From NCBI GenBank assembly GCA_964410905.1, contig CAYPIR010000003.1, forward strand, positions 15,986 through 79,985: a stretch of DNA of 64,000 nucleotides, given 5' to 3'. Made by a program: the position numbers and the translations under genes. Positions 3,472-47,433 of this stretch are shown piece after piece. The notes under the pieces were generated by a model. That model was not told where the DNA came from. It saw only the letters and a program-made list of their open reading frames with translations, and ran no database searches. The DNA is from an uncultured bacterium. GTDB lineage: Bacteria > Omnitrophota > Omnitrophia > Omnitrophales > Aquincolibacteriaceae. The stretch's first letter is position 1. Each line of letters starts with the position of its first letter.

Positions 3472-3473
3472 AA

Positions 3474-6866: not shown

Positions 6867-6879
6867 CCTAGATTCTAAT

Positions 6880-6908: not shown

Positions 6909-6950
6909 CTTAATTTAAAAATAAAACCATTAAATCAAGGAGAAATAAAA

Positions 6951-7238
6951 ATGAAAGTGAGACCTTTAGCAGACCGAGTGCTTGTTGAAATCTTAGAAGC
7001 CGAAGAAAAAACAAAAGGAGGAATTATTCTTCCCGATACGGCGAAAGAAGAAAAAACTGAAGGCAAAATCATCGCTGTGGGTTCTGGAAAAACACTAGAA
7101 TCCGGAAAAGTTCAAACGATTGAAGTCAAAAAAGGCGACCGCGTATTGTTTGGAAAATATTCCGGAGACGACATCGTAATTGACGGCGTAAAGCACAAGA
7201 TTTTGAAAGAAAGCGAAATTTTGGCAGTTTACGAATAA
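6951..7238 (+). CDS. groES: co-chaperonin GroES
   Basis: 95 aa, [19 protein letters not shown] Shine-Dalgarno. Confidence 0.95.
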
Positions 7239-7270
7239 CAAATTCTTGTTAAACCAAAGGAGCAGTTAAA

Positions 7271-8899: not shown

Positions 8900-8919
8900 C
8901 AAGCCGCGTTAAACAAAAA

Positions 8920-8956
8920 GCGGAGTTGCGACAAAATCGCAATTCCGCTTTTTTTC
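8920..8956 (+). terminator. rho-independent terminator after groEL2
   Basis: gcggagttgcga-caaaa-tcgcaattccgc followed by T7. Confidence 0.6.
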
Positions 8957-8970
8957 TTTCCTCCAGCCTC

Positions 8971-9120
8971 TCATTTAACTTTGTCGGTTTTAAGAACTTT
9001 GAGAGCCTTGTTAACGCCATTAGCGGTTAATACCGTGTAACCTTCTGTTTAAAAATGAGCTTTTAAAATGTCCGCGATTTCTTCAGCATCATCAACGATA
9101 AGTATGGTTTGATTATCCAT
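8971..9120 (-). pseudogene. remnant of a response-regulator receiver domain, with an in-frame TAA and a truncated C-terminus
   Basis: Translates as MDNQTILIVDDAEEIADILKAHF*TEGYTVLTANGVNKALKVLKTDKVK*. This looks like a CheY-like N-terminal half. Confidence 0.35.
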
Positions 9121-9125
9121 AAAAA

Positions 9126-10364: not shown

Positions 10365-10968
10365 ATAACTCTTTTCTGTTGTTTTGCTTTTCAACTCAAT
10401 TGTCGCTGTTTAGTTACGGCTATTTTTATTCAAAGGCGTATAGATAAAAACGATTTTTTTATGTGAAATGAAACTTTCTTATCGCCGCGTTATCATAAAT
10501 TAGTTCGTTTAAAATCAATACCTTAAAAGAGGCGTTATGAAACCATTCATTGCAAAACATTTAGTTTTTATCTCGCTTTTCACCGCCGCGTTTGTAATGT
10601 CGTAGTCGACAGAAGAGCTGGCGCAAGTAGCAGCTGCTCAGATTACGTCTGCAACACAAAACGAGCAGCCATAAAAAACAACTGTGATTACAGTCCCGAA
10701 TCCAAAAGGGAGTTATATTCCTGTAATCCTTCAAAAATATAGCGGTAGATATGTGAGGCCAAATGACGAGGTTTATTCCGATTATCCAACTATCGAACAA
10801 CCAAAAGCGATGTATGCCATTCCATCCGCTTCAGCAAGCAAACAAAACACATAAAAACAGGTATGCATGTCAGCTAATTCATGGGCAGATTTAATCCTAA
10901 AGTCATCTTTGCAAAAATCAAAGACGGAATAAATCAATTCTGTGAAGAAGTTTTTATTTCAAAAACTA

Positions 10969-28976: not shown

Positions 28977-29051
28977 ACATTTCTCCTATTTTATCTTTCA
29001 TATAAATTTTGACTTAAAATCTTGAAAAACGTTGACCCGTTTTTTACTATC

Positions 29052-29079
29052 CTTATAATACGTTGTCTTTGGCGGAAGG
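29052..29079 (+). promoter_or_regulatory. sigma70-like promoter for tRNA-Asn
   Basis: TTGACC-16 nt-TATAAT, about 25 nt upstream of the tRNA. Confidence 0.45.
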
Positions 29080-29103
29080 CGTTTCCTTTCCTAAAATTTA
29101 CAT

Positions 29104-29176
29104 TCCCCTGTAGCTCAGCTGGTAGAGCATGCGGCTGTTAACCGCAGTGTCCCTGGTTCGATCCCAGGCGGGGGAG
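29104..29176 (+). tRNA. tRNA-Asn(GTT). CCA is not encoded.
   Basis: Cloverleaf folds by hand: acceptor tcccctg/cggggga, anticodon loop ctGTTaa, T-loop ttcgatc. Confidence 0.9.
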
Positions 29177-29259
29177 TCTTCATTATATCTTAAAGGCTTT
29201 GAATTGCTCAAAATAAGCGCCAATGCCTTTGTGTGTTTCTCGCTTTTGGAGAATGTGTA

Positions 29260-29610
29260 ATGTATAAAAATTTCTTATTTTATTTTTCCCTTCTATTAAG
29301 TATTTCCGTATGTTTTACCCCCTATACGTTTGCCTACGAAGAGACTATAACGATGGAAACGTTGGAAAGCGTTAGCGGTTCCGTTATGTCTATTAGCGCG
29401 AACAAAAAAAATATCACTGTTAGGCGTATGTATGGCGGTGATTCAATTCGCTATCAGGACATCGCGTTAGCGATCGCGTCCAATTGCGTTATTACAAAAA
29501 ATTCAGAGATAGTCGAAACCTCTGACTTGGAAATCGGCGATCACGTAGACATCCGATACAACGCCAACGCTGAGCCTCTGGCAACCGCTGTAAGTATTGT
29601 AGTTTCTTAA
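29260..29610 (+). CDS. small secreted hypothetical protein
   Basis: N-terminal signal-peptide-like segment. GGAGA Shine-Dalgarno before the ATG at 29260. Confidence 0.45.
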   Translation: MYKNFLFYFSLLLSISVCFTPYTFAYEETITMETLESVSGSVMSISANKKNITVRRMYGGDSIRYQDIALAIASNCVITKNSEIVETSDLEIGDHVDIRYNANAEPLATAVSIVVS

Positions 29611-29639: not shown

Positions 29640-30389
29640 ATGTATAAAATCGTTTTAATCAGACACGGCGAAAGCCTTTGGAATAAAGAAAACCGCTTCA
29701 CAGGCTGGTATGACGTTGATTTATCCGAAAAAGGGCTAAATGAGGCGCGCGAAGGCGGAGACCTGCTGAAAAAAGAAGGCTTTACATTCGATGTCGCTTT
29801 CGTATCCGTTTTAAAGCGTGCAATCCGAACGCTTGGAGCAGTTTTAGACAGAATGGATCTTCTGTGGATTCCTGTAGTCCGCGATTGGCGGCTTAACGAA
29901 CGTCATTATGGTTCGCTTCAAGGACTCAACAAAGCCGAAACTGCCGAAAAGTTTGGCGATGAACAAGTAAAAATATGGAGACGCAGTTATGATGTCCCGC
30001 CTCCGCCGCTTGAGGAAACTGACGCGAGAAATCCCGCAAATGACCCGCGCTATAAAAACCTTCCCAAGAATGTTATCCCGCTTACAGAATGCCTAAAGGA
30101 CACGGTCGCGCGCGTAATTCCATTTTGGAATGAAGTTGCGGTCCCGGCAATCCGCTCAGGGAAAAAAGTTTTAATCGCGGCGCATGGCAATAGTCTTCGC
30201 GCGCTTGTAAAATATCTCGATAATGTCTCAGAAGAAGATATTCTCGCGTTAAATATTCCAACAGGGGTTCCTCTTGTTTACGAACTCGACCAAGACCTTA
30301 AGCCTATCAAACATTATTATTTGGGCGACCAAGACAAAATCAAAGCGGCAATGGACGCCGTCGCGAATCAAGGGAAAGCAAAAAAATAA
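29640..30389 (+). CDS. gpmA: 2,3-bisphosphoglycerate-dependent phosphoglycerate mutase
   Basis: [26 protein letters not shown] Shine-Dalgarno. Confidence 0.9.
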
Positions 30390-30430: not shown

Positions 30431-32032
30431 TTGCAAACATCAAATACACAGAATCTCCTCCTTTTTTTAGACCGCTACGCTTTTAGGATTTTTTCCGCGA
30501 TTTTTATTGCTGTAAGTCTAGCAATCCTTCCCGACTTCGGCATCAACGTCGACAGCGTCAAAAATTTCGACGAGGGCAGAATAAACCTTTCCGCCATCCT
30601 GCATTTTAGTATTACAAATACCGACCAAATGTTTTTGTCTCATCAAATTCACGGCTCATTATTTTTTATGTTATGCGAAGTTTCCCGCATTGTTTTTTCG
30701 GAATGGATTCCGTTTTTAAATCCAATTTCCGCGCGCCACTTGCCCTTGCCGTTTCTATTTTGTTTTTTTGCCAACAATTTTTATGCTTTCTTAAAAAAAC
30801 GCGTTTCTCACTCCGTAGCGTTTCTGGCGGGGACGATTCTTCTCACTATTCCTCCGGTTTTCGGGCATATTTTCCAAAATATAAAAGACATTCCTCTCAT
30901 TGTTTTTTTCTCATTTACTCTTATTTATTTCTTAAAATGGACTGAAACAAACTTCGCAAAAAACCGCTACCTTTTAATCGCTTCACTTTGCTTGGGACTA
31001 ACATTCTGCATTAAACTTTACGCCGCTTTAATTTTCCCGCTGCTTCTCCTTTATCTTATTTTTCTACACAACAGCAAACAAGAAACCTCTATTGTTTTCA
31101 AAAATATTAAATCAAAAAAGAATATATTTTTATTGTCTCTTTGCGCGATTTTTGTCATCGCTTTTACTGCCATTTTTTATATGCCGGCAATTTGGACGGT
31201 TGAGCAAAAACTCGCGCTCCTAAGCATAAATAAATTTCAGGCCGCGCAGCTATTGGGATATGGCACAAAAGGTTTTCAAATCACTCCCTTTCTAAGACTT
31301 TTTTTAATATTACCGTCATTATCTTTACTGTTTGGCATTTGGGGACTTATCAAAACGGCCGCTCAGCCTAAAAAAAATCTTTGGTCAACATTATCCCTTG
31401 TTTGGTTTTTTGTGGTTCTCTTGACGGCCTGCATGCCTATTTTCCCCGTATACAACGGCATCAGACTTTATATGGTTTTCATTGTCCCATTTTGTTTTTT
31501 TATCGCCGCGGGGATTATCGATGCCGCGCGTAGGCTTGAAAAGTTTTTTCCCAAAAGAAAATTTTTTCTAACGCCCATTTTGGGAACAATGGTTATCGGC
31601 TGTAATATTTGGGGAATTGTTGAAACCCACCCATATGAATTCACTTTCTTTAATGCTTTATCCGGCGGACTAAAAGGCGTGCAAGAAAAACGATTGGAAG
31701 GCGCGAGTGATTATTGGTTAGCCTCATTCAGAGAAGGCGTGATGTGGATAAACAAAAATGCCGCGAATAACTCCACTCTTTATTTAAGTAATCTGGATGG
31801 CGAGATAACGGCATCTGTCTACCCAAGAAGAAAAGACATTAGCATACGGCACGCGACAGAAAGACCTTTTAATAAGAATTCGTATCTTTTTCTTCCAGAC
31901 GGCTTATCAGTATGGATCAACGCGAAAGGCGTAGCCAAAGAGCGTGTATTTTCAGAGCTTTTAAATATGAAAAAAGTTCACAGAATAGAGCGGCAAGGCG
32001 GAAAGATTCTTGAAATTTATAGAAAGGACTAA
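30431..32032 (+). CDS. polytopic membrane protein, putative GT-C glycosyltransferase (ArnT/PMT-like)
   Basis: Multi-TM with a DE-containing first loop. TTG start after GGAGGAG. Confidence 0.45.
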   Translation: MQTSNTQNLLLFLDRYAFRIFSAIFIAVSLAILPDFGINVDSVKNFDEGRINLSAILHFSITNTDQMFLSHQIHGSLFFMLCEVSRIVFSEWIPFLNPISARHLPLPFLFCFFANNFYAFLKKRVSHSVAFLAGTILLTIPPVFGHIFQNIKDIPLIVFFSFTLIYFLKWTETNFAKNRYLLIASLCLGLTFCIKLYAALIFPLLLLYLIFLHNSKQETSIVFKNIKSKKNIFLLSLCAIFVIAFTAIFYMPAIWTVEQKLALLSINKFQAAQLLGYGTKGFQITPFLRLFLILPSLSLLFGIWGLIKTAAQPKKNLWSTLSLVWFFVVLLTACMPIFPVYNGIRLYMVFIVPFCFFIAAGIIDAARRLEKFFPKRKFFLTPILGTMVIGCNIWGIVETHPYEFTFFNALSGGLKGVQEKRLEGASDYWLASFREGVMWINKNAANNSTLYLSNLDGEITASVYPRRKDISIRHATERPFNKNSYLFLPDGLSVWINAKGVAKERVFSELLNMKKVHRIERQGGKILEIYRKD

Positions 32033-32039
32033 AGGCAAT

Positions 32040-33914
32040 TTATTTTGATGGAGAAAAACGTTTCGTTCTATCAAAAAACAAAACCCGCGCTTCGCGAATT
32101 GTTTTTACACTAATTGGTTTATTTATTTTTAAAGATATTTCAAATTGCCCATTTCGCGGCCATTGTTTCACGCGAACTCCATCGCCAGATTCAGTATGAA
32201 ATAAAATCTCCATAGGCGCATCAAAAAATCCTACGCCTCGAACAAACAAATCCCTCCCCTCAGCGCAAATGACTGCACGCTCGGCTCCTCCTCCCGAAGG
32301 TTCCAGAAAAATGCATTTGTCATTCTCATTTATTTTAGAAAATTTTTTGATTCTCGCGCGCTCCACAACAAGCGGTCCGACATCCCGCGAGACATCCCGC
32401 GTATTTTTTGTTTTTTCATTATGCGTAAAAACGACTTGCCCGTCTTCAATCGCGTAAGCCAGCCGTTCTAAAAAAATAGGCGCTTGCGAGGTTTCCGCGT
32501 CCTCCGGTTTGGTCTCTTCAAAAAGGCTGACGGACATTCCAGAATAAAATCTCACAGCATTTGTATAAACATGGAAAAGATATGTTGCTTCATCTTCGCT
32601 ATGGAAAAAATATTCTTTGGGATGCGCTGGATAATAATCCCCTGCCCAAACTAACCTTTTTCCGCCCTCATTTATACTTTTGGCATAATCCGCCGCGTCT
32701 TGAACAAATGTAGAATGATAGAAAGGGTCTTGAAACTTCAGCATTTCTCTGCCCGCGCGAACAAAAGAAATGCCGAGAATACAAACTACAATAAAAACCG
32801 TTATGGGATAAATCGGCTTCAAAATTTTACGTTTAAAAAAATCGGCCTCAAAAGTCTTTATTTTAATAATTCCAACTATCACAAAAAAATAAATAGCGGG
32901 ATATATCGGGAAAAAGAAGCGCGCCTCTTTGTGCTGCATAAAATGTCCGTGGAATAAAAACCATAAAAAAATCCAAACAATAAAAAACCTGCTATGAAAA
33001 CTTTGTTTTCTAAAACTTGCCGCGACCCCAATCATAGCTAAAACGCTCGCGAGTCCGCCAAATGACTTCCAAATAAACGCGTATCCTTCCCACCAAGTTT
33101 CTTGGTAACTATTTAAAATCCGCATATGCGAAAACGTTTCGGCAAAAAACAATATCGGCGCGAATGTCCAAGATGTTCTTCCGGAAATGCCATAAGCGAG
33201 AGTCGGAAAAATCACGGCAATAAGTGTGGCCAAGACGGCATAAAGAGAAATTACAAAAATATTTTTAACAGGAAATGCTCTTATATTTTTCCCCGTTATA
33301 AAAAACTCCCATATTTCCGTTAAGAAAAAAATACCGGGCATCAGCGCCATAAAATTATGTCTGGTTGCTATGCCGACTCCCGCCCACAAAATCGATATCC
33401 AAAAAAACAGTCCGCGGGTTGTCTTTTTCCATTTAAGATAATAGACAAAAGCCATCACAAGCAAAAAAACTCCTACAATGTCCTCTTTCGGAAACGGCGC
33501 GGAGTGTATAAGAAGCGGATTGAGCGCGAAAAGGGTTATGCCGAAAACCGCCCAAAATCTACTGAGTTGAAACCTGAATAATCTATAAACACCGCAAACG
33601 GCTCCTATAAAAAACGCGACCTCGGCAATGCGGGACAAAAGAAGCTGCAGGTATTGAATGCGCGTAATATTTTCTATGAAAAGAAATAACGCGTATAGGA
33701 GAGATAAAAATGGAGTGCTTCTGTAATAGTAAGGGAATTCATAACCGAAGAGGATTTGTCTGGCGTTTAAAAAAAGACCAAACGCATCAAAATTATCAAC
33801 GCGAAGAATTGCCGCGACCCAGACTAAATAAGAAAATAGAAAAAGCAAAACACCGATAAAGCCATAACAAATTATGTTCTGAAATCGTGAAGTGAATGAA
33901 ATCTTTAAATTCAT
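32040..33914 (-). CDS. polytopic membrane protein, putative GT-C glycosyltransferase (ArnT/PMT-like) with a C-terminal soluble domain
   Basis: ~12 TM, DNFD in the first loop, ~200-aa C-terminal periplasmic-type domain. ATG abuts the stop of the upstream GT2 gene. Confidence 0.5.
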   Translation of the reverse strand: MNLKISFTSRFQNIICYGFIGVLLFLFSYLVWVAAILRVDNFDAFGLFLNARQILFGYEFPYYYRSTPFLSLLYALFLFIENITRIQYLQLLLSRIAEVAFFIGAVCGVYRLFRFQLSRFWAVFGITLFALNPLLIHSAPFPKEDIVGVFLLVMAFVYYLKWKKTTRGLFFWISILWAGVGIATRHNFMALMPGIFFLTEIWEFFITGKNIRAFPVKNIFVISLYAVLATLIAVIFPTLAYGISGRTSWTFAPILFFAETFSHMRILNSYQETWWEGYAFIWKSFGGLASVLAMIGVAASFRKQSFHSRFFIVWIFLWFLFHGHFMQHKEARFFFPIYPAIYFFVIVGIIKIKTFEADFFKRKILKPIYPITVFIVVCILGISFVRAGREMLKFQDPFYHSTFVQDAADYAKSINEGGKRLVWAGDYYPAHPKEYFFHSEDEATYLFHVYTNAVRFYSGMSVSLFEETKPEDAETSQAPIFLERLAYAIEDGQVVFTHNEKTKNTRDVSRDVGPLVVERARIKKFSKINENDKCIFLEPSGGGAERAVICAEGRDLFVRGVGFFDAPMEILFHTESGDGVRVKQWPRNGQFEISLKINKPISVKTIREARVLFFDRTKRFSPSK

Positions 33915-34841
33915 TTATGACAAGTTCTGGTTTTCGTCGTCCGACTTTCGTAAAATCATCTCGGACAAAAGTCCAAAAAATATGCTTTGAAGTCCGCCCA
34001 AAAAAAGCGTGAATCCCAAAAACATATAAGGATAGTGCGGCGCGATTTCTCCGCCAAAACACTTAATTAAAAAAAGATGCCCATTTATTATGCCGCCGAT
34101 AATAAGAAACAGAAAACCGATGGCACTAAAAAATCTGGCCGGTTTTAGTCCATAACGCATTAAAAAAGAAACGGTTAGAAGGTCAACAAACATTCCCCAC
34201 GCCCGCGCCGCGCCGAATTTGGACTTACCGAATTTTCTAGCGCGATGTTCAACGGGAGACTCGGCAACAGAAAAACCTTTACGAAAAACAACCGCCGGAA
34301 TAAATCTATGCATCTCGCCATAGAGAGTAATGCTTTTGGCAACTTCCGCGCCGCACAGCTTTATGCCGCAATTAAAATCATGGAACTTAAGACCCGTCGC
34401 GAATCTTGTAAAAAAATTGAACAGCGCCGAAGATAAAATTTTATGCCAAGGATCGTTTCTCAACTTTCTCCAACCGTTAACGAAATCCACATTTTGCGAT
34501 TGTTTAGCGTCAAATAAATTTAAAAGTTCCATGGGGACGTCTTGCAAATCAGCGTCTAAAGTCGCGATATAATTACCGCGCGCCAGAGCAAATCCTCGAT
34601 TTAACGCCTCAGATTTCCCGCGCCGTGAACCAAACACTTCTACTTTAATTCGCGCATCATTTTTAGAAATATTTTTTAAAATAGAAACGCTTTTGTCCGA
34701 ACTGCCATCATCTATGAAAATAATTTCAAAGGAATAATTTCCAGACTCCATGGCTTGCTTGATTTCGTCCGTCAAAAGCTGAAGAGAGTCTTGTTCATTC
34801 AAGACAGGGACGATTATGGAGAATTCAATTTTAGATGTCAT
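33915..34841 (-). CDS. polyprenyl-phosphate sugar synthase, GT2 (GtrB/ArnC/DPM1-like)
   Basis: SIIVPVLNE, FIDDGSSD and DADLQD motifs, plus two C-terminal TM helices typical of GtrB/ArnC. Confidence 0.8.
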   Translation of the reverse strand: MTSKIEFSIIVPVLNEQDSLQLLTDEIKQAMESGNYSFEIIFIDDGSSDKSVSILKNISKNDARIKVEVFGSRRGKSEALNRGFALARGNYIATLDADLQDVPMELLNLFDAKQSQNVDFVNGWRKLRNDPWHKILSSALFNFFTRFATGLKFHDFNCGIKLCGAEVAKSITLYGEMHRFIPAVVFRKGFSVAESPVEHRARKFGKSKFGAARAWGMFVDLLTVSFLMRYGLKPARFFSAIGFLFLIIGGIINGHLFLIKCFGGEIAPHYPYMFLGFTLFLGGLQSIFFGLLSEMILRKSDDENQNLS

Positions 34842-34900
34842 GATTGGTCATTCTACAAGAAACATAAGCAATGCCGCAACAAACTAAAATTGGTCTGCAG

Positions 34901-37900
34901 CTATGCTGATTTTGATATAGCGCCAAGAGCGAGTGCCGATATTTGAAGATTAGTGAATAAAAGTTCTGACGCGGATTGAACCGTTTTAGGCAATTCTTTC
35001 GAAGTAATAAGTTTGTCAATAGCAGCAAGAAAAGCATATGAGCGCATATCGATAGACAAGTCATCCGCTACTATCAATGTTTCATTTCGCAAAAGAGTAG
35101 AAGCTAACTTTTCTAAATTAGGACGCGCGTCTCGCCGCGCGTCATAGACAAGCGTTCTGATAATTTCTCCTTTAATAAAACCGCTAAGCGCGTTCACATC
35201 ATCCGTAACAGAAACCTTTACTCCTTTCCCTTTATTTTGCTGCGATTTTCTGACCGCCATAACTTGTCTGACAAAATTCCGTTCAAGCTCCCGCGCTTCA
35301 ACTTTAGAAATATTAGGTATCAATATTTGTATTTCTATCCCAGGTTTATCGGCAAGTAGCTGCTCCATTATTCGCATCAAAGAGTCATTCAGCGACGGCT
35401 TTTCATCCATCGCGATTGAAATTTTTAGGACATCCGTTTCGCTCTTATTTAGTATTTCGCGTGTTATATCTTCCGCCACCGCATCGCGTTCTTTATCAAC
35501 CCAAGCACCCGTCACAACCTCAGAATAAAACTTTTGCCATCCATTAGACGACATCGCATCAACTTCGCTTTGTCTAAAAACTCCTTTAGCAAACACGACC
35601 GTTACTTCTTTGCCAACTTGAGTTCCTCCGCGGCTTTCTGAGCGCGATAACTCAACAAAGTCTTGTAATGCGGAAGCCATCATCATATTCCCCAAAAAAC
35701 TCATCATAGGAATTACTGTTTCATTAAATTCCGATACGGCTTCTTCCGCGCGATTTCGCATAATTTCCGATTTAGAAAAAATATCGTTTATTTGATCAAA
35801 CAAATCTTCTCTTTCAGGTTCAGTAGCGTGAAACTTATTTAGCAGCTGCACCGCCGTTTTGTTGCTGTCCCAATTCTTTCCCATATGTATTGAAGGAACG
35901 CTCTGGCTTGTGGGCTCAAGCAAGTTATGATTTTCTCCCACTATTACCAACCTTGCCACGCCCAAAATCGGCAAAAGTTCTCCTGCTGTTTCAAGTCCAA
36001 TAATATCCGCGTTTCCCATCGGCTCGCCCTCGGCAAGCCCATTAAATCTTTTGGATTTTGCTCTATCTCCAATTCTGCGAAACTTTATTTTGCTGTCAGA
36101 AAGTCCATATTTTCCTGCTGTTTTCAGCAAAAATTCTTCTACCATTTTACCGCCATGCCTAACTCCCATAATTAAAAGAGGCTTTTGTTCTTTGGGAAAT
36201 TTTGCATACGCTTGAAAAATTTTTTCTATTTCTACATTGTTGGGGCTTGAGGCGACAATAATTATTCTGTCCGCGGAAACTCCCATTATTTTTCGAATTT
36301 CCTCATGTTTCTCATCTGAAATTTTTTGAGGCAAAACATATTTATATGGATCATGAGGGAGAATCAAACGCTCGTCATGAGACTTTCCAAAAAAAGGCGC
36401 ATTGCTAAAACTAATAGCTATTTCATTTTTCTTTCTCGCTGCGCTTTTAGATCTTATGTCATATCCAAGAAAACTTTCTTTAATTAGCCTTTCATTGACC
36501 TCTCCGCCATAAGTCAGAATAACTTGTTTTTCGCTAAGTCCTGTGGCCTTGATAAATCCACGCGTGGAGTTTATCGCCGCGACTTCGGGTATATCAAAAG
36601 TAATTTTAATGTTCTCTTCGTCAAGTCGTTTTATGATTTGAAATCCATGTCGCTTGATATTTTTAAAATCTACATCTTTTCGCATCGCCAGCCCCAGCAC
36701 TTTAGCGACTTCGATTGGATACGCGGCAAACCAATCTCTAATTTGCTTCATATCAAAACCCGCGTAATGAAGCGAATCTACTGCGTCAGCAAAACTAGGC
36801 TCTTTTAAAGAGGCTTCAAAGGAGTTGCTAAACTCTCTCGGCGGATTATTTCTCAAAGCTTCTATAAGAGCTGTTCTCCCCAGCGAATTTCGCGCACCAA
36901 GCCTGGCAATAGTGTTTACCGCCTCGGAAGACCGCAAAAATTTTTCAAAAATATTTTTCATAGAATCTTTTATATAATCCGCAACAAATTGCCCTTCTTC
37001 CAAAGAATCCAACCAAAGTTGTTCTATTTCTGTTTGCAAATCGTTGCCGTTATTTATTCTTTCTTCACTACGGCTTACATCGCCTCGCTCGCCATTAAAA
37101 TATTTATTCCATATGTCAGAGCGAACAAAAAGCAAGGCGCTATACTTGCCCCCAAAGGGCTTGGCGATATCAAAGCCATCTATTTTCGCAGCCACGGCAC
37201 TTTCATCACCTAACTTGTCATAAAATTCATCCAAAACAAACGCAAAATCAGAAATGCCTGTTGTTAAAATCATCGCAGGCTTAAGCCGCATAATTTCTTC
37301 TAAAAATGACAGACCATAGTCATACGCAATATTCATAACAACAATAGGATTTTTCCATTCCTCTGGATTGACTTCCCCAGAATCAATCCCCTCGCCAAGA
37401 TATTTCACTATTTGAAACTGAGAGGCTTCCAAACCATTATTTTTAAGATTAGCGACAAGAGATTTTCGTTTCCTCGCGCCCGGCTCTACATATAAAACTT
37501 TTTTAGGATTATTAAACGCAAGCCCCAATTTCCCGTCATCTGCTCCAAAATCAACTACAGAAAAATTATTTGTAAGCGATGCTATTTTTTGAATTAACGA
37601 TAAAGCAATATGCGTTGACGCAATTGGCGTTTCAATGACATCTCCTTCGCGATCTGTTTCCTCTATGCCTTCATCCTTTTCTCTTCCAAGGACTTCTTTA
37701 ACGGCATAATCGGAAACTCCAAATCCGGGAGACTCCAGCGAGATAAATTTCATGTGCGGGTATTTTCCATGCAGATTCTCAGCAATCGCTCTTGTCTCTC
37801 GTTGTTCTCTATAATAGACAATATCACCATGCCGTCTAAATAACACTACGCGACGACCTTCTAAATCTCCTTCGATAAATTCCAGCGGAATGATTTTCAT

Positions 37901-40900
37901 ATTGTCCTGAGCGGGCGGGTAAAAATCAGCAGCAACATTTTCAAATTTTTCTCGAGCAAGGTTTAAAAAATCATTCATAGGGTTTTCAGTATCTTCGCGA
38001 AGAACTTCCTCAAATAATTTTTGTCTTGTAGATTGAACCAAACCTTTAGAACCAAAAATATTACGCTCAGAATAATTAGAATTTTCAACCGACTTCCTCG
38101 CTTGTCTAATTTCATGTTTTGCTTCGTCTATATTCTCAAATGGTGAAATGTCCAGCATTTCGCTTCGGCCATCATCGCGTTGTATATTTTTAAAATATTT
38201 TTCTAAAGCGTCGCGGAATTCATCTTTATACCGAGCCGGCGCGTAAATCGGCGTCGAATATGAGCCATTGATTAGTTTTACAGGAATGTTTTGTTCACGC
38301 AAAAATTCAAATATTCCTTTTATCTGTTTCTCTATGTTTCCTTTTGAAGGAAGATTAACCACATCCGTTGTCCATTGCCCGTCCCTAGCAAAAAAATCCA
38401 TATCAATCGAGACAATAACTCCTTGCTTTAGCCCCTCAGAATGCTTTGCTATGACAGATTTCCAATCACTTGTCATTGCCGCAAAATCTTTTTCATCGCC
38501 TAAAAGACTTCTGCCTTCGCTTGGGTAAAACCAAAATGCTTCACCGACATCGCCTTCCTTCAACAAAGATGTCACCCAATTAGACAAATCAATGCCGTTA
38601 ATTAATTTAGGAGAATTATCGCTGTGATAATCAAAAAGAAGCATGGGCAGCCCTTTAGAAATTATTCCGTTTTGAACGCCATAATGAATTTGGTTGTAGG
38701 CTCCATCGTGGTTACTCGTAATTTCAAAGATGTTGTTGTTCAATTCACTGGCTCGTGTTTCACTTCTAACAGTGCTAGTCAACATAGAATCGTCTGTTTC
38801 CCGCAACGCTAACAATATCGTTGCTTTTGCCGCGATTTTCATTAATGGAAATTCTACATTTTTAAAGTCATCGACCGCCTGTCGTATGTTCTCTTGTATT
38901 TGTTCTGAATGGTTAAGCGTGGAGTTTATTTGATTAAAAAAATCTCTTTCATTTACGACTTGGACAGCGTTAAACGCACCTAAAATATTTATTGCGCTTC
39001 GGTTATTTGTCCAATTTCCGTCAAAGAAAAGCGTGGGAACCTCTTGGCTCATAGGCTCAAACAAATTACGATTTTCTCCCACTATTGCCAAATCCGCCAC
39101 CGCAAAAAAAGATCTCAACTCACCTTGCGTGTTCAAAATAACTATGTCCGCGTCGCCCATCGGGACCTCTTCGGCAGTTCCATTAAAAGACCCACCTGGT
39201 AACATATCTTTTTCAGATCTGACGCGGATCTTATTTCTTCCGAGCTCAATTTTGCCCATATCCCCTTTAAGAATATCATTAACCAAAGTAGCCTTAGTAT
39301 TGCGCATGCCGACAATTAAAAGTGGTCGTTCGTTTTCGGGATACTCGCTATACGCTTTAATGGTTTTTTTGAGCTCTTCATTTTTCGGGCTTGACAGTAT
39401 TATTATTTTTCTGTTCGGTAAAACTTCCATTTTCTCACGAAGAATTTTGCGCTCCTCAGCCGAAATTTTTTGAGGCAAGGCATATTTATAAGGGTCATAA
39501 GGAATAAACATCGAGGGGAGAATACTAATAACTCTTTCTCCGTCATGAAACGCCGCGACAATTTCGTTCGCGGGATTAAGTTTCCCTCTAATAAATTCTC
39601 TAACTCTAAAATCGGGGAAATTATCTTTTAACATTTTTATGGAAACCTCTCTGTCAGCCAACAAAACAGCTTTTCTCGCATCTATGTTTGCCGCGTTCAA
39701 AAAGCCACGAATGGCGTTCATTGATGCGGCTTCATACACTTGAAATAAAATTGTTTTACTAGTTTTATTCAAACGCTTTGCCAAACTTCTCTCATCGCGC
39801 AATATCTCTATTACCTTTTTCTTGTCTCCTTTGAAAAACAAAAGAAATTCAGTAATTTGGCTTATTGTCTGACGTAACGCGCCGTTTAAATTTGTCTCAC
39901 TGCTGCGGTTTAAAATCTCCTCGCCAACCAAAATTTTTAAGATTTCCCAAGCCTTAGAAAAAAGATCAAAGCCAATGTCTCCATCTATAAAAAGCAAAAA
40001 CTCCGCCACATCAAATGGATTTTGTTTAAAAATTTTTTGAATATCAAAGCCCAAAACTTCTATGACTTTTCCCATTGTTTTAGAAAAAGAAAGAGAATAT
40101 AAAAAATTTTTCACTTCTAATGGAGCTTTAATGAAAGCGGCTTGAATTGTATCAGCGTCCAAAACTTCCGTATTATCAAGGTAAGTAAAGCGCGGCTTCT
40201 TACGTGACGTTTCATGAGAGAATGAAAACAACGCTTTTAAAAATACATCGCGAGATGTCTTAATTGATTCCCTAACAGTCTCCAAACCTAAGACCTTGTG
40301 TTTCGTAAGCTCGCGTAAAGCGTCAAAAACTAATAAACCATAGGAAAAATTATCAACGGAAATGCTTTCCACCATTTTAAAAAATAAAGCCGTATCCGCA
40401 CCTAATATTTCGCATAAAAAATCCGCCCCCAAAATATCCGCTAATTCTTTTAAGGTTTCTACATCTGCCGTCTTTATTTCCGGAAAATCCTTTGCCATAT
40501 ACATGGAAGTTGCTGCTATCAAATCTTCTACGGTTTTCCGCGTTTCACTTCGTGGGCGTTGAGCTTTTTCTAAGTATTTTTGCGCGACATCTTTTCGGAC
40601 AAACAAAACAGCTCGATAATTTCCTTGATTTGGTATTTCAAAAAAGTGTCCGCCTGAAGCAATAATTTGCGGCTGATATGAAGTCGCGAGCATTTCCTTT
40701 TGGGCGTCTTTGGCAAAAAGACTTCCAAAAATATCTTCGTATCCAAGATGAGAAAAATATTCGTGTCCCGTTGTAAGAACCATCGCGGGCTGAAGTTTTT
40801 TTATTGTTTCCAAATATCCGCCGCCGTAATCATAGGCAACATTCATTACGACAAATGCATCTTTCCAATCTTTCGGATTAATATCGTCTTCCAAAGACGC

Positions 40901-43396
40901 CCAAAGCGATTCAATAACTTTATATTTTGAGTTGTCCCAACTGTTGCTCTTTAAATTACATTCGATAATTTTTCTTTTACTTTCATCTTTTTCGACAAAC
41001 AAAACTTTGGGTGCGTCTTTAAAAACAAGCCCCAGTTTGCCGTCATCCGAACCAAAATCAACCATAGGCAAGTCTTTAACTTGAGGCATGACTTCTTGAA
41101 TAATAGAAAGTGCGGCATGCGTTGTCGCGGGAGGCGTCAAAACGCCTCGTTCAGTGCTTTCAAAAAATTCTGGATATTCCAATGAAACGAATATGAATTG
41201 TGAAAACCTATTTTTAATTTCACGGACCATGTCGGCAGCGTCATTACTATCGCGGTAATAAATAACATTTCCGTGCCTGCGAAAAATAAGCCCAAGCCGT
41301 CCGTCTATAGTCGCTTCAATAAATTCCAGCGGGAATATTTCCCCTTCAATGTTTGCCGTTGGGTAGAAATCTATGGCAGCATCTTGGAATTTTTGCCGCG
41401 CCCGCGCGAGCAAATCCGCCATCGGGCTGTTCTTGTCTATTTTTATAATATCTTCAACAAAAGCCCGTCTCTTTGCTGGCGGCAAATCTGAAAAAATTTT
41501 GTTTGCAAGTCCCTCGCCCAAAGTCCTTCCGAGCATAATATGTCGAATTAGGTCTTCCGGCGAAGCGTCCGTAACCCATTCATTAGCATTGTCTGCGGTC
41601 CCCTTAACGCCTGACATTGCCTCTCTTACTTCAGAGCGGATAAATTCAGCTGTGTCCGCATCAAAACCTTCTGTGCCGCTTAAAACAGGAGAAAATCTGA
41701 CAAAAGAATCGGAGAGATTGTCATTCCGCGCGTTGTTTTTCAACATTGAAGAATCCAAAAGATTACTCTCTTGGGTTCCGATCTCCTTATCGGGACTAGT
41801 CAATGCTCGCTGCGTTGACACAAATAGTCGCTGCTCAATCGCCGCGTCCAATTTAAATTCGTCGTCGTGTAATGGCAAGTCGGTTTTACCGTTTCTATTC
41901 GTTGCTCCAAGCGTCATCGTTTTTATGTAATTATCATTATTAGTTTTGCTCGTTATGCGCGGCAAAATTCGAACATATGATAAATTTTTATTTTTAAAAA
42001 TATTTTCTAATCCCGCTGTATGAAAACCTCCTGTTATTAAAATTGCGCTCTGAATATTTAAATCCTTTATCTTCGCGAACATTTGTTCAAACATCACATC
42101 GTCACGTTTTATAGCAACTTCATAAAACTTTAACGCAAGCCTAACCGCGTAAGGCAAATCATTTTCAGCCAAAACACCCCGAGCTTCTTGATATTCCTCA
42201 TGCGTAAGCTCCAGTTCCAACAAGCTTTTAAGAAGTAGATATTTTTTGTACTGTGCTACTATTCTTTGCTCGTCATGAGTTTTTGAAAGCGCCGTCAAAA
42301 TTATCTCGTTTATTCTTTTTGTTTCTCTCAAAAGCTCTTCAGCTCGAATTTCTTGGCCCAAAAGCCTTGCCCCTAAAAGTTTTACAAGCGCCGGATAATC
42401 CTGAAATTCAAACCCTAAATCCTGTGTTTCATTTAAAAACTTCTCAAGAAACGAGCGAATATCTTTTTCTTCTTCAAGAAAATTCTTAAAAGCCGCTTGA
42501 TAATCTTCACTGAAATTATTTTCAGCCAGCCATGTGATAAGTTTGGTTTGCTCTTTTTTTATTGTCTCCCGTGTTCCCTCGGTTTGTTTCTCTAATTCTT
42601 GCAGTTTGAAAAATCTCACAAGCTGCGGAAAATCATGTTGTTCGCGAGCGTTTGATAAATCTATATTTAAAATATCAAGAGCTGTTTTTTTCAGAAAACC
42701 AAGCCGTGAAATAAAATCTTTTTGTATCTCAGATTGAAAAATCCATTCACGGAAAAAATTTTTAAAATTAGGGTTGGTGTTTTTTGCAACTTCTTGTTTA
42801 AGACTTTGTTTTAATTTAAGCAAAATTTTTGAAGCTTCTTTTTTGTGAGAGTAAACCTCTCTAAAAAGCTTTAATTCTTCAAGATAAAGTTCTCTATTCT
42901 CTACGCCAAAAACCTCCGCGCCGGACTTATCAGAAAACAGAAATCTCTCAACGCCTCCGACAATTCCCTTTTCGGTTAATTTATCTATGAGTTTTAAATT
43001 TGCATCTTCTTCGTTGAAAAATCGGAGCAATTCTTTTTTCTGTTTCCCAACTCCGCCTTCTACAAAAATAGTTTTTATTCCATATTCTTTTTCAAGATGT
43101 CGCAAAATTTGCTCTTGATTTTTCTGCGCCTCGACACTTCCGTGCGCGTCTTCTATGTGAACAATAGAAATTGGATAAGAAAATTTCGCTTCATTTTCCG
43201 GTTGAGAAATATACATGTCTTTGATACTTCCAACGCAAAGAGGTATTTCAATTTTAGAAATTATTGAGGGAGCGCGATTTTGGCTAAAATCTATGGCGGG
43301 CGCGGCAAACGCAACATTTGTCCAAAAGAAAACGATGGACATAAAAATAGCGATATTTTGCCGCGCTAACAGTTTATATTTTTTACATTTAGACAT
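34901..43396 (-). CDS. 2831-aa N-terminally anchored giant multidomain protein. It has a domain shared with the 964-aa protein, two methyltransferase-like domains, two WaaA/KdtA-like GT-B domains, and an arginase/deacetylase-like middle segment.
   Basis: Single ORF with an ATG at 43396. Internal duplication aa 658-1530 vs 1807-2580. Motifs DTQGEL..ADLAIVGEN and IIILSSPKNEE resemble WaaA. Confidence 0.75.
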   Translation of the reverse strand: MSKCKKYKLLARQNIAIFMSIVFFWTNVAFAAPAIDFSQNRAPSIISKIEIPLCVGSIKDMYISQPENEAKFSYPISIVHIEDAHGSVEAQKNQEQILRHLEKEYGIKTIFVEGGVGKQKKELLRFFNEEDANLKLIDKLTEKGIVGGVERFLFSDKSGAEVFGVENRELYLEELKLFREVYSHKKEASKILLKLKQSLKQEVAKNTNPNFKNFFREWIFQSEIQKDFISRLGFLKKTALDILNIDLSNAREQHDFPQLVRFFKLQELEKQTEGTRETIKKEQTKLITWLAENNFSEDYQAAFKNFLEEEKDIRSFLEKFLNETQDLGFEFQDYPALVKLLGARLLGQEIRAEELLRETKRINEIILTALSKTHDEQRIVAQYKKYLLLKSLLELELTHEEYQEARGVLAENDLPYAVRLALKFYEVAIKRDDVMFEQMFAKIKDLNIQSAILITGGFHTAGLENIFKNKNLSYVRILPRITSKTNNDNYIKTMTLGATNRNGKTDLPLHDDEFKLDAAIEQRLFVSTQRALTSPDKEIGTQESNLLDSSMLKNNARNDNLSDSFVRFSPVLSGTEGFDADTAEFIRSEVREAMSGVKGTADNANEWVTDASPEDLIRHIMLGRTLGEGLANKIFSDLPPAKRRAFVEDIIKIDKNSPMADLLARARQKFQDAAIDFYPTANIEGEIFPLEFIEATIDGRLGLIFRRHGNVIYYRDSNDAADMVREIKNRFSQFIFVSLEYPEFFESTERGVLTPPATTHAALSIIQEVMPQVKDLPMVDFGSDDGKLGLVFKDAPKVLFVEKDESKRKIIECNLKSNSWDNSKYKVIESLWASLEDDINPKDWKDAFVVMNVAYDYGGGYLETIKKLQPAMVLTTGHEYFSHLGYEDIFGSLFAKDAQKEMLATSYQPQIIASGGHFFEIPNQGNYRAVLFVRKDVAQKYLEKAQRPRSETRKTVEDLIAATSMYMAKDFPEIKTADVETLKELADILGADFLCEILGADTALFFKMVESISVDNFSYGLLVFDALRELTKHKVLGLETVRESIKTSRDVFLKALFSFSHETSRKKPRFTYLDNTEVLDADTIQAAFIKAPLEVKNFLYSLSFSKTMGKVIEVLGFDIQKIFKQNPFDVAEFLLFIDGDIGFDLFSKAWEILKILVGEEILNRSSETNLNGALRQTISQITEFLLFFKGDKKKVIEILRDERSLAKRLNKTSKTILFQVYEAASMNAIRGFLNAANIDARKAVLLADREVSIKMLKDNFPDFRVREFIRGKLNPANEIVAAFHDGERVISILPSMFIPYDPYKYALPQKISAEERKILREKMEVLPNRKIIILSSPKNEELKKTIKAYSEYPENERPLLIVGMRNTKATLVNDILKGDMGKIELGRNKIRVRSEKDMLPGGSFNGTAEEVPMGDADIVILNTQGELRSFFAVADLAIVGENRNLFEPMSQEVPTLFFDGNWTNNRSAINILGAFNAVQVVNERDFFNQINSTLNHSEQIQENIRQAVDDFKNVEFPLMKIAAKATILLALRETDDSMLTSTVRSETRASELNNNIFEITSNHDGAYNQIHYGVQNGIISKGLPMLLFDYHSDNSPKLINGIDLSNWVTSLLKEGDVGEAFWFYPSEGRSLLGDEKDFAAMTSDWKSVIAKHSEGLKQGVIVSIDMDFFARDGQWTTDVVNLPSKGNIEKQIKGIFEFLREQNIPVKLINGSYSTPIYAPARYKDEFRDALEKYFKNIQRDDGRSEMLDISPFENIDEAKHEIRQARKSVENSNYSERNIFGSKGLVQSTRQKLFEEVLREDTENPMNDFLNLAREKFENVAADFYPPAQDNMKIIPLEFIEGDLEGRRVVLFRRHGDIVYYREQRETRAIAENLHGKYPHMKFISLESPGFGVSDYAVKEVLGREKDEGIEETDREGDVIETPIASTHIALSLIQKIASLTNNFSVVDFGADDGKLGLAFNNPKKVLYVEPGARKRKSLVANLKNNGLEASQFQIVKYLGEGIDSGEVNPEEWKNPIVVMNIAYDYGLSFLEEIMRLKPAMILTTGISDFAFVLDEFYDKLGDESAVAAKIDGFDIAKPFGGKYSALLFVRSDIWNKYFNGERGDVSRSEERINNGNDLQTEIEQLWLDSLEEGQFVADYIKDSMKNIFEKFLRSSEAVNTIARLGARNSLGRTALIEALRNNPPREFSNSFEASLKEPSFADAVDSLHYAGFDMKQIRDWFAAYPIEVAKVLGLAMRKDVDFKNIKRHGFQIIKRLDEENIKITFDIPEVAAINSTRGFIKATGLSEKQVILTYGGEVNERLIKESFLGYDIRSKSAARKKNEIAISFSNAPFFGKSHDERLILPHDPYKYVLPQKISDEKHEEIRKIMGVSADRIIIVASSPNNVEIEKIFQAYAKFPKEQKPLLIMGVRHGGKMVEEFLLKTAGKYGLSDSKIKFRRIGDRAKSKRFNGLAEGEPMGNADIIGLETAGELLPILGVARLVIVGENHNLLEPTSQSVPSIHMGKNWDSNKTAVQLLNKFHATEPEREDLFDQINDIFSKSEIMRNRAEEAVSEFNETVIPMMSFLGNMMMASALQDFVELSRSESRGGTQVGKEVTVVFAKGVFRQSEVDAMSSNGWQKFYSEVVTGAWVDKERDAVAEDITREILNKSETDVLKISIAMDEKPSLNDSLMRIMEQLLADKPGIEIQILIPNISKVEARELERNFVRQVMAVRKSQQNKGKGVKVSVTDDVNALSGFIKGEIIRTLVYDARRDARPNLEKLASTLLRNETLIVADDLSIDMRSYAFLAAIDKLITSKELPKTVQSASELLFTNLQISALALGAISKSA

Positions 43397-44757: not shown

Positions 44758-47433
44758 TTAAAAATCATACCTCACGGTTGCGTAATAGGTGTGGCTTATA
44801 TAACGATCGCGAATTTCCATATCCCAATTACCCGTGAGAGTGAAATTCCCTTTTGATAAAAAGGCAATTTCCGCTCCGAGTAAAAGTCCGCTTTTAGACG
44901 GTTTCGCGCCGCGCACAAGAAAGGAATTTCCGCCGCCAGCAAAACTCGCGCGCGTCTCGTATCGCTTCCCAATATAATCATAAAGCCAAGCGCCTTTGAT
45001 TGACGGAACAAATGTTCCAACTTCTGTTTTGATTTGGTATTGCAGTTTAAGCCCAAGCGTTTGTTCTAATGTGTGATACCCCTTCCCTTTAACCGATAAA
45101 TCCAAATCGCCCGCGCCATTTTCGTCATATCCATGAAGCCGCAAATAACTATATTCCAGTCCGACAAATGGCGTAATCTCCAAATGCTTAAGCTCCGCCG
45201 ATGTCATCGTATAACCTAGTTCAAACTTTGAACTATATTCCTGCCCGCTATGTTCCGCTTTTGCCACGCGGTCAAGCGCGCTTGTTATTGCTATTTCTCG
45301 GCGGCTCTTATATTCGTCCCATGTAAAAGCTATCATGCTGTCGGCATACCAAAAATTCTCGCCGTAGTTTCTGACCGCCGCTCTCTGGTTGGCTCCATAA
45401 GCCCTGCCGGCGCACAAATCAAGCGAGTCATAGCTGCCATACAAACTAAAACTGTAACTATTAATTTGTTCCGTGGGATTTCCCGGCCGTTTTGAGTCAA
45501 CATCCGCGTAACCATATCCCGCCGCCGCGCCGACTCTAAAGTGGCTGTCCAGCTGCCTATCTATACCGACCGTTGTCCCATAGGAGTTTGACGTAAAACC
45601 CTCAATGCCTTTTCGCGTCTTCTGCTCCATATGATTCCCTAAGCCTTGCAGCCAGACACCAAGCCCGGTTATCGTCTCGCCTGATGAAATTCCGCTTTGG
45701 AAAAATCCGTGCCGCACGCTGCCCAAGCGATTACTAACTGAACGCATATGATTCCCCGTCAGCATTTTGCTTCCGCGCGCGATTCCTGAACTTATATCCG
45801 GCATCATTGTCGAAAGCGCTTTTTGCACCTCTTCAGAACTCATCCCATCTAAAGCATTAAGCACATCCAGCATATCGCCTTGGGCGTTTGGCATATTGTC
45901 TAAAACTTCGCCAACCATTCTTGAGTTTTCATCCTTTCCAGCATCGCTCGCGAATCCGCCCGCGCGGCTGAGCATAAGACTCAATATCCCATCATGAATG
46001 CTTTCAGTCCCTGTATACCGGTCTGAGAAAAGCGTCAGCAAACCATCAAAATCTAATGTGCCGCCCGCGCTCAAAATATCTACTGTCGTTCCGTTAGCAT
46101 AATATCCCGATGCAAGCGAGACATCGATGTCCCCGCTAACATCTATATCACCGTCCGCAACAACAGAACCATAATCATTTTCCGCTATCGTGAGCGCAAG
46201 CGTAGAACCGGCAGCTTGGTCAAAATCCCCGCCGATAAGTAACTGCGTTGTCCCGAGTTCAAGAGTGCCAGCATCCAATAAAACATTGCCTGTCCCAAGC
46301 GCCTGGGAATTTCCAACAATTACTGTTCCGGCGCTAACTGTCGTCCCGCCTTCATATGTATTCGCTCCAGAAATAGTAAGCGTGCCATCTCCTTCTTTTG
46401 TTAAACTACCGTCCCCGCTTATAACCCCAGAAAAAATTGTATCCTCGTCATTTCCTCCGACTGTCAAATCAGCTGTTCCTAAATCTACATCGCCAGCTCC
46501 GCTTAACCCTTGCACAGTTTGATCATAATCATTCAAGTCGAACGAAGCGCCAGATTGAACTGCTAAACCAGAACTAGTGGAAATTATATCCGCAGCTCCT
46601 GCTTGTAATGTTCCAGCACTAACTGTCGTTCCGCCTGTATATGAATTAGCTCCAGAAAGAGTGAGTGTTCCTGTCCCAGTCTTTGTCAAACTTCCTGAAC
46701 CGCTTAACCCCCCACTCATTGCAGCCACACTTTCATTGCCTATAGTCCCGCCATTAGCTTCCAACGTCCATGCACCAGCGTAACTATCTCCTGTTAAAAT
46801 CAACCTTCCGCCGTTAAGAGTTCTGCTAGTCGAATATAAAGTATCAGCAAATATTGATAATTCGCCCCCAGTATTGATAGAGATAACGTTTGAAAATAAA
46901 CTTCCACCCTCAGCAATAGTTACCGTCCCTTCATTATTCACAGTTAGGTTGCCTATAAGATTTCCGCCAGAGTTGACAATAACAGCACCTTCCGGCGATA
47001 TAACAATTCCTCCATATGAGGCAACATCTCCACCGTCTGGATTGGAACCGCCACTAATTGTAAATATTCCGTGATCAAAGTTAAATACACCCAGTGTAAT
47101 CCAGTTTCCACCTGCTAAAGTGAGATCCGCAAGAGTCGAATTAACATTGGCGCCATTGACATGCGCCGAACCAATAGAAATATCGGCATCTTGGTCGATG
47201 GTAATATCATCGTCATGTGTAGGCACCGTTGAGGTGTCCCAGTTAGAAGAGTCAGTCCACGTGGAACCATCTCCGCCACCAGTCCAAGTTACAGTGGCAG
47301 CAAATGAAACTGGCGAGAAAATAGAAAGGAGAAAAATGAGAGAAGTAAGAAGAGTTAAACTGCGGAAGAAAAACGAACGCGGATAACTATTTGTTTGTTT
47401 GTTTGTTTGTTTGTTTGTTTGTTTGTTTAGCAT
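44758..47433 (-). CDS. autotransporter (type Va) outer-membrane protein
   Basis: Signal peptide. G/T-rich passenger with TGTGTLTLSGANSYTGGTTVSAGTL repeats. C-terminal beta-barrel ending ...YATVRYDF. Confidence 0.85.
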   Translation of the reverse strand: MLNKQTNKQTNKQTNSYPRSFFFRSLTLLTSLIFLLSIFSPVSFAATVTWTGGGDGSTWTDSSNWDTSTVPTHDDDITIDQDADISIGSAHVNGANVNSTLADLTLAGGNWITLGVFNFDHGIFTISGGSNPDGGDVASYGGIVISPEGAVIVNSGGNLIGNLTVNNEGTVTIAEGGSLFSNVISINTGGELSIFADTLYSTSRTLNGGRLILTGDSYAGAWTLEANGGTIGNESVAAMSGGLSGSGSLTKTGTGTLTLSGANSYTGGTTVSAGTLQAGAADIISTSSGLAVQSGASFDLNDYDQTVQGLSGAGDVDLGTADLTVGGNDEDTIFSGVISGDGSLTKEGDGTLTISGANTYEGGTTVSAGTVIVGNSQALGTGNVLLDAGTLELGTTQLLIGGDFDQAAGSTLALTIAENDYGSVVADGDIDVSGDIDVSLASGYYANGTTVDILSAGGTLDFDGLLTLFSDRYTGTESIHDGILSLMLSRAGGFASDAGKDENSRMVGEVLDNMPNAQGDMLDVLNALDGMSSEEVQKALSTMMPDISSGIARGSKMLTGNHMRSVSNRLGSVRHGFFQSGISSGETITGLGVWLQGLGNHMEQKTRKGIEGFTSNSYGTTVGIDRQLDSHFRVGAAAGYGYADVDSKRPGNPTEQINSYSFSLYGSYDSLDLCAGRAYGANQRAAVRNYGENFWYADSMIAFTWDEYKSRREIAITSALDRVAKAEHSGQEYSSKFELGYTMTSAELKHLEITPFVGLEYSYLRLHGYDENGAGDLDLSVKGKGYHTLEQTLGLKLQYQIKTEVGTFVPSIKGAWLYDYIGKRYETRASFAGGGNSFLVRGAKPSKSGLLLGAEIAFLSKGNFTLTGNWDMEIRDRYISHTYYATVRYDF
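47390..47428 (-). repeat. tetranucleotide repeat, (TTTG)9 on the plus strand and (AAAC)9 in the coding sense, within codons 3-14 of the autotransporter
   Basis: tttgtttgtttg... encodes NKQTNKQTNKQTN immediately after ATG-CTA. Confidence 0.9.

Follow-up and report, generated by a model that had tools for sequence, protein, structure and literature searches.

The DNA considered here is a 64,000-nt stretch of contig CAYPIR010000003.1 (assembly GCA_964410905.1) from an uncultured bacterium of Candidatus Omnitrophota, called the window below. It carries a gene for a family 2 glycosyltransferase (GT2) and two genes for membrane proteins of the GT-C glycosyltransferase type (A and B), next to a giant gene and to a gene for a small secreted protein. 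We propose, with a probability of roughly 0.7, that these genes form a glycosylation module of a diderm Omnitrophota bacterium, using a lipid-linked monosaccharide and working independently of the adjacent giant gene. Positions are given in window numbering, related loci are labelled L002-L019, and the relatives of the giant protein P0008 and P0009.

The first-pass annotation of this DNA had placed the module in one operon with the giant gene, had taken the giant protein or its product as substrate or partner of the sugar transfer, and had suggested a comparison with orthologous loci. According to this comparison, the giant gene and the GT2-A-B triad do not co-occur. In the six related module loci, GT2 is never preceded by a giant gene (0/6); the position is occupied by a HemN-like gene (L003), rubrerythrin and HemN-like genes (L010), a peptidase S9 gene (L006), or a response regulator gene (L012). 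The partial upstream open reading frame (ORF) of L003 was considered as a giant homolog and rejected, being HemN-like. P0008 and P0009, the best relatives of the giant protein, have the same divergent iron superoxide dismutase (Fe-SOD) neighbour as in the window (69% identical in L009), and are therefore taken as its positional orthologs. No homolog of GT2, A, B, or the small protein is present within 10 kb of either (0/2), and the genes downstream of them are a transposase and a radical S-adenosylmethionine (radical-SAM) gene, or another giant gene (6560 aa). Because the linkage is absent from the orthologous loci, a role of the giant protein as substrate or partner is unsupported. The conserved module does not include the giant gene, and we read the location of the module directly downstream of it as a lineage-specific juxtaposition.

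It could still be argued that the module is operonic with the giant gene, so that A and B glycosylate the giant protein or decorate the product of its WaaA-like modules. GT2 does lie directly downstream of the giant gene on the same strand, at a measured distance of 59 nt (60 nt in the first-pass annotation), and a scan of this gap revealed neither a terminator-like hairpin nor a consensus promoter, while TGTAGAAT, resembling an extended -10 element by eye, is located 9 nt before the GT2 start codon. The giant protein has one hydrophobic, signal-like segment at its N-terminus (residues 14-35). It also contains internal duplications (residues 638-953 pair with 1786-2113, and 1198-1550 with 2247-2591, at 36-37% identity), each duplicate ending in a weak WaaA/KdtA-like GT-B half (NCBIfam, 2e-10), and its positional orthologs carry different envelope-glycan cargo (Bac_transf and Transgly), providing a thematic link to lipid-linked glycans. 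A segment of about 220 aa (residues 1528-1745) is UPF0489-like and is common to P0008, along with the N- and C-terminal domains; Pfam searches with eight separate giant segments returned nothing significant. Against a coupling stands, besides the absence of the linkage from all six module loci and both giant orthologs, the nature of the giant family, which comprises at least 160 long Omnitrophota proteins with a common N-terminal part of about 500 aa, a common C-terminal part of about 240 aa, and variable, interchangeable cargo in between. A paralog of the N-terminal domain is encoded elsewhere in the window, by a 964-aa ORF at 14024-16918 on the minus strand (25% identity over 510 aa, E = 2e-26), which matches no Pfam family. 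In published surveys, the genes near Omnitrophota giant genes are secretion, pilin, and PilZ genes (10.1101/2023.11.21.568195), and the term "glycosyltransferase" is absent from the main text of that study. We therefore regard a functional coupling to the giant protein as unlikely.

The GT2 protein matches Pfam Glycos_transf_2 (E = 1e-28, 100.8 bits against a cut-off of 23.3). Its best NCBIfam match is the ArnC model (1.6e-37, residues 7-301), with 129.2 bits against an equivalog cut-off of 529, so that it is not an ArnC ortholog; the second-best match is PgfS (2.5e-27), with 95.9 bits against a cut-off of 500. In phmmer alignments with solved structures, residues 7-298 of GT2 correspond to residues 10-297 of ArnC 9hwj (5.8e-34), residues 3-298 to residues 24-313 of Synechocystis GtrB 5ekp (1.3e-25), and the catalytic domain to archaeal DPMS 5mlz (2.5e-11). 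The motif LDADLQD (D96-A-D98) is in register with LDADLQN of ArnC, and hydropathy indicates two C-terminal transmembrane (TM) segments, at 234-263 and 273-297, in register with the solved structures. By homology, GT2 is thus predicted to be a polyisoprenyl-phosphate glycosyltransferase of the GtrB/ArnC/DPMS type, with a GT-A domain and a C-terminal TM pair, in agreement with the earlier description of a GtrB/ArnC-like protein with DADLQD and a TM pair.

Protein B exceeds the gathering score of Pfam PMT_2 (2.4e-7, 31.5 bits against 26.1). Its AlphaFold2 (AF2) model, built from a 16-sequence alignment, reached a mean predicted local distance difference test (pLDDT) score of 80.4 and a predicted TM-score (pTM) of 0.82. 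In the Foldseek search of this model against the PDB, ranks 1-27 were exclusively GT-C enzymes (TMq about 0.4-0.56), including STT3, ALG9/ALG12, AftA, AglB, ArnT 5f15 (E = 1.5e-4, TMq 0.53), DPY19, PglB, and AftD. The family match above the cut-off, the confident model, and the restriction of its 27 best PDB matches to GT-C enzymes support the assignment of B as a PMT_2-family GT-C membrane glycosyltransferase. Residues D35, D41, and E48 are invariant in six orthologs and fall in the loop and helix following model helix 5-31; they would be situated in the first extracytoplasmic loop after TM1, a sidedness that we infer. The B orthologs also retain D153, R345, and H400-P-Y-E, of which D153 and R345 stay invariant on inclusion of A-family and distantly related PMT_2 proteins. 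Outside Omnitrophota, a B-like GT-C protein (30% identity) was found in L013 (candidate division TM6 / Dependentiae, LBNX01000002), among eleven genes of 424-727 aa on the opposite strand.

Protein A belongs to a rare divergent PMT_2 subfamily, with 421 representatives among 1.84 billion clusters at E<=1e-3 in an exhaustive profile search; a word-indexed search had yielded three relatives. Among 60 full-length relatives, 54 match Pfam PMT_2 (best 2.9e-15), 16 match PMT, and 12 match Glyco_transf_22. The A sequence alone has no PDB sequence match, and searches of A and B against PDB sequences with single sequences or shallow profiles produced noise only; the 84-sequence A-family profile is the only A or B profile reaching the PDB beyond noise, with a match to yeast Pmt2 (6p25_B, E = 1.8e-4). 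Alignment of the A and B families by hhalign gave a probability of 97.9% (E = 3e-13, 361 columns). All 60 sequences retain D43, which lies in the loop following TM1, and D145 (KEDIP), E330, and R332 (HKEAR) are at least 90% conserved. The C-terminal part of about 220 aa is beta-rich, the sole confidently modelled portion in AF2, and is predicted to be extracytoplasmic. The PMT_2 matches of 54 of the 60 relatives, the Pmt2 profile match, the hhalign result with B, and the invariant D43 together support A as a putative divergent PMT_2-type GT-C protein with an additional C-terminal beta-rich domain. A had been described as a 12-TM GT-C-like protein; the family holds as PMT_2-type, and the number of TM segments is approximate, with about 11-13 long helices before residue 400 in a model of too low confidence to assign a fold, whose best Foldseek match is PglB (E = 7e-4, TM-score 0.24). 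Two further neighbours, the 577-aa protein of L005 and the 536-aa protein of L008/L010, were tried as A-like GT-C proteins and rejected (hhalign probabilities 0.6% and 2%).

The first-pass annotation had looked to a GT-C catalytic acidic loop for its reading of GT2 as donor synthase and of the membrane proteins as transferases, and acidic residues are indeed conserved in the first outer loop of both A and B; family membership and residue conservation speak for that reading, as does the structure model in the case of B. A and/or B could alternatively be accessory proteins of GT-C fold, for instance Agl23-like flippase-associated factors or factors for lipid-carrier recycling. Such a role would suit the lack of a flippase gene in the module and the sole NCBIfam match of A, the "flippase activity-associated" Agl23 model (E = 0.002). 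However, this match reaches 17 bits against a cut-off of 126, and the acidic residues of outer loop 1, D145/D153, and R332/R345 are conserved in both families, as in active GT-C enzymes, which makes this alternative very improbable.

A GT2-led operon converging on a B-type gene was found in six related Omnitrophota loci (L003, L005, L006/L007, L010, and L012) as well as in the window, and the conserved core reads small secreted protein, gpmA or a B paralog, and B, converging on GT2, a methyltransferase in some loci, and A in some loci. In L003, a HemN-like gene, GT2 (59% identical), a small methyltransferase gene, and A converge on B; L002 carries GT2, the methyltransferase, and A. In L006/L007, the small-protein gene, B', a methyltransferase gene, and B converge on GT2 and methyltransferase genes, with a peptidase S9 gene upstream of GT2, and in L005 the same four genes converge on a nine-gene operon headed by GT2. 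In L010, from the closest genome (gpmA 80% identical), the small-protein gene, gpmA, and B' face HemN-like, rubrerythrin, and GT2 genes, and in L012 the small-protein gene and B' face genes for a response regulator, GT2, and a methyltransferase. In L008, the small-protein gene is followed by B and an A-like gene. The L005 operon (5371-15278) additionally encodes two B12-binding radical-SAM proteins, a SPASM radical-SAM protein, two DegT aminotransferases, a hexapeptide acetyltransferase, a methyltransferase, and a 577-aa protein of unknown family. Such a set of enzymes suggests that the lineage makes an amino sugar with elaborate modifications.

A SAM methyltransferase gene of about 199 aa directly follows GT2 in L002, L003, L006/L007, and L012; the encoded proteins are 71-76% identical among L002, L003, and L006, and 58% in L012. 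This GT2-adjacent methyltransferase is absent from the window and from L010. It was also considered as kin of the Rossmann-like modules of the giant protein and rejected, and no copy exists elsewhere in the window. In L011, an Omnitrophota metagenome-assembled genome (MAG), a B-type GT-C gene is followed at once by a gene for an 855-aa STT3/PglB-like oligosaccharyltransferase (2313-6490; Pfam STT3 2e-18).

The small secreted protein is the recurrent partner of B-type genes. It carries a signal peptide, and the junction A|YE[D/E]T is invariant; the mature form, which begins with YE[D/E]T and whose Thr at this site is invariant, is probably a small beta-rich domain. Its homologs are 34-41% identical to the window copy, with 19 invariant columns over six sequences. 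It is encoded upstream of B or B' in the window, L005, L006/L007, L008, L010, and L012, corresponding to 6 of 7 informative loci, either directly or with gpmA alone in between, while the genes beyond it vary by locus. The order small gene, gpmA, B recurs in L010, and gpmA is probably a housekeeping passenger of this same-strand cluster. Pfam and PDB searches with the small protein gave no Pfam family and weak CusF/DUF1344-like hints (E about 0.05), and a metagenome scan with its profile found at least two loci. The small protein is accordingly a candidate acceptor or periplasmic partner of B.

Judging from its homology to ArnC, GtrB, and DPMS, GT2 would load a sugar onto a membrane lipid, and a flippase encoded outside the module would turn the lipid-linked sugar over. 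A and B, as PMT_2-type GT-C proteins with acidic residues in the first outer loop, may then draw on the flipped lipid-linked sugar as their donor at the periplasmic side. The use of one donor by two distinct GT-C proteins would imply two acceptors or two sites. The preferred acceptor of B would be a periplasmic or secreted protein, with the 116-aa neighbour as the first candidate, in a PMT-like O-glycosylation. Four points favour a protein acceptor for B: B-type genes are repeatedly paired with the small-protein gene, the A family has affinities to PMT, the B-type gene of L011 adjoins an STT3-like gene, and the Pgf system of Streptococcus mutans provides a precedent, with one GT-A and two GT-C enzymes encoded beside substrate proteins (PMC5856776; 10.1101/2024.05.05.592596). 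Almost as probable is a target in the envelope, be it lipopolysaccharide, lipid A, or another glycan.

Several points weigh against a protein-directed module that is independent of the giant gene. Taken alone, A stays below every curated cut-off (best Glyco_transf_22, E = 0.0027, 17.4 bits against 23.8), and its AF2 model, built from four sequences, has a pLDDT of 54, with values below 50 for the membrane part. The family searches proposed by the first-pass annotation gave a divided outcome, in that B lies above the PMT_2 cut-off while A alone does not, and the NCBIfam ArnT models match neither. The pairing of the small protein with B has exceptions, as L019 contains the small-protein gene and gpmA without B and L011 contains B without the small gene, so that part of the linkage may reflect inherited synteny. 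Nor does the small protein contain a disordered region rich in Ser/Thr, such as the Pgf and GtrB/PgtC2 systems glycosylate. Co-transcription of GT2 with the giant gene is possible in this genome, because the 59-nt gap is free of terminator-like sites. Neither a GtrA-like nor an ArnE/F-like flippase gene was found in the module, and no GtrA-like ORF or small multi-TM ORF occurs in it or adjoining it. The sugar, the lipid carrier, and the acceptor are all parts of the scheme that we infer from sequence.

The sole flippase-like candidates in the window are a 114-aa ORF at 17049-17393 (minus strand), the one small four-TM ORF of the window, and, divergent from it, a Wzx-like Polysacc_synt gene at 17434-18759 (plus strand), about 12 kb off the module.

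A further point against a protein acceptor is that the ArnC matches of GT2 and the operon content of L005, with its DegT, acetyltransferase, and radical-SAM genes, point to an Arn-like amino-sugar pathway, which is classically targeted to lipid A. In that case GT2 would make an undecaprenyl-phosphate-linked (amino)sugar, A and/or B would act like ArnT on lipid A phosphates or core sugars and alter the surface charge, and the small protein would be unrelated. Support for this comes from ArnC as the best curated and structural match of GT2, from the inclusion of ArnT in Pfam PMT_2 and among the structural matches of B, from the joining of GT2 to two ArnB-like DegT aminotransferases, an acetyltransferase, a methyltransferase, and radical-SAM proteins in L005, and from the presence of an outer membrane. 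However, GT2 scores far below the ArnC cut-off, no ArnT model matches A or B, and the module of the window contains no ArnA/B/D/E/F-like genes; Pfam scans of 24 window ORFs, including all of at least 150 aa within 21310-53013, detected no DegT, formyltransferase, or deformylase. In addition, STT3 and ALG9 outrank ArnT for B in Foldseek, the A-family profile matches the protein O-mannosyltransferase Pmt2 and not ArnT, the linkage of the small protein recurs in rearranged contexts, and one B-type gene (L011) adjoins a gene for an STT3/PglB-like protein oligosaccharyltransferase. We hold an Arn-like pathway to be less probable than the independent module as a whole; measured against a protein acceptor of B, it is almost as plausible.

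A more specific version of the independent module would be a dedicated PMT-like protein O-glycosylation system of Omnitrophota, in which B either modifies the 116-aa protein as its specific acceptor or requires it as a periplasmic subunit, and A, with its additional beta-sandwich domain, serves a second target. We put this forward tentatively, as a conjecture that is rather doubtful at present. If true, PMT-type protein glycosylation would occur in a diderm phylum apart from Actinobacteria, and its substrate would be paired with it genetically. The comparison defines the divergent PMT_2 subfamily of A and the repeated occurrence of a small secreted-protein gene together with a GT-C gene. This pairing offers a handle on how the surface is glycosylated in a phylum that is uncultivated and possibly host-dependent. 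The rest of the module is, by its predicted functions, an ordinary scheme of a polyprenyl-phosphate-sugar synthase and GT-C proteins, of an already known kind. With the module self-contained and its neighbours differing among relatives, a tempting but unsupported hint at what an Omnitrophota long protein does falls away.

The features of the locus are listed in Table 1. All three ORFs of the triad described in the first-pass annotation (308, 624, and 533 aa) are present in the ORF list, and the stop codon TAA of GT2 abuts the ATG of A as described (...TCATAAATGAAT...). The gene of B had been called divergent; A and B in fact converge tail to tail, with 7 nt between their stop codons. Homologs of GT2, A, and B in other contigs have 36-59% identity in conserved gene order, indicating that they are real genes and not chance ORFs. 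The GC content is flat at about 0.40 over the region and thus gives no hint of a foreign island. The small-protein gene, gpmA, and B are separated by short intergenic gaps and have good Shine-Dalgarno sequences. Together with tRNA-Asn, they may form one transcription unit.

Table 1. Coordinates of the module and adjoining features in the window.
Feature	Position	Strand	Size	Basis or remark
GT2	33915-34841	-	308 aa	ORF list
GT-C A	32040-33914	-	624 aa	ORF list
GT-C B	30431-32032	+	533 aa	ORF list
Giant protein gene	34901-43396	-	2831 aa	ORF list
Small secreted protein gene	29260-29610	+	116 aa	Homologs upstream of B/B'
gpmA (phosphoglycerate mutase)	29640-30389	+		Between small gene and B; Pfam His_Phos_1 1e-36
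Intergenic gap, giant stop to GT2 start	34842-34900	-	59 nt	Sequence read
tRNA-Asn	29103-29178	+		Directly upstream of small secreted-protein gene
Promoter-like site, TTGACC-16-TATAAT	29032-29059	+		11/12 matches, near-consensus; precedes tRNA-Asn

Exact copies of the window proteins were found in only one NCBI assembly and one Logan contig. The relatives of the giant protein are nearly all from Candidatus Omnitrophota, and Omnitrophota MAGs also supply the closest loci, with gpmA 80-82% identical. A diderm envelope is indicated by an 891-aa autotransporter encoded at 44758-47433 (minus strand), just beyond the Fe-SOD gene, with a beta-domain (3e-54) and PATR repeats.

Compared with known systems, the module shares with the ArnC/ArnT pathway (undecaprenyl-phosphate-L-Ara4FN synthase and GT-C lipid A transferase, GT83/PMT_2) a GT2 protein that aligns over its full length with ArnC structures and is partnered by PMT_2-family GT-C proteins, and a relative (L005) has DegT aminotransferases in its operon. 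It differs in the low ArnC score, the lack of ArnT matches and of ArnA/B/D/E/F in the window, and the presence of two GT-C proteins with a conserved small secreted protein as neighbour. The three-component GtrA/GtrB/Gtr(type) systems for O-antigen glucosylation likewise combine a GtrB-like GT2 protein, to which that of the window aligns over its full length (5ekp), with a GT-C transferase. Unlike these systems, the window has no adjacent GtrA flippase gene, two GT-C proteins of another family, and a context that is not phage-borne. The Pgf protein O-glycosylation system of S. mutans (PgfS, GT-A; PgfM1/PgfM2, GT-C; PgfE, epimerase) corresponds to the module in having one synthase, two GT-C proteins, and a candidate substrate gene adjacent to them. 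However, PgfM1/M2 belong to the YfhO family, whereas A and B match PMT_2-type models only, and the module of the window has no epimerase, a diderm host, and a candidate substrate without a Ser/Thr-rich disordered region. The protein O-mannosylation systems Ppm1/Pmt of Actinobacteria and Dpm1/PMT (GT39) of eukaryotes differ from the window proteins in that the latter have no MIR domains and that A and B themselves do not match Pfam PMT; the likeness lies in the resemblance of GT2 to a polyprenyl-phosphate-mannose synthase (DPMS 5mlz) and in the affinities of the A family, whose profile matches yeast Pmt2 and 16 of whose 60 relatives match Pfam PMT.

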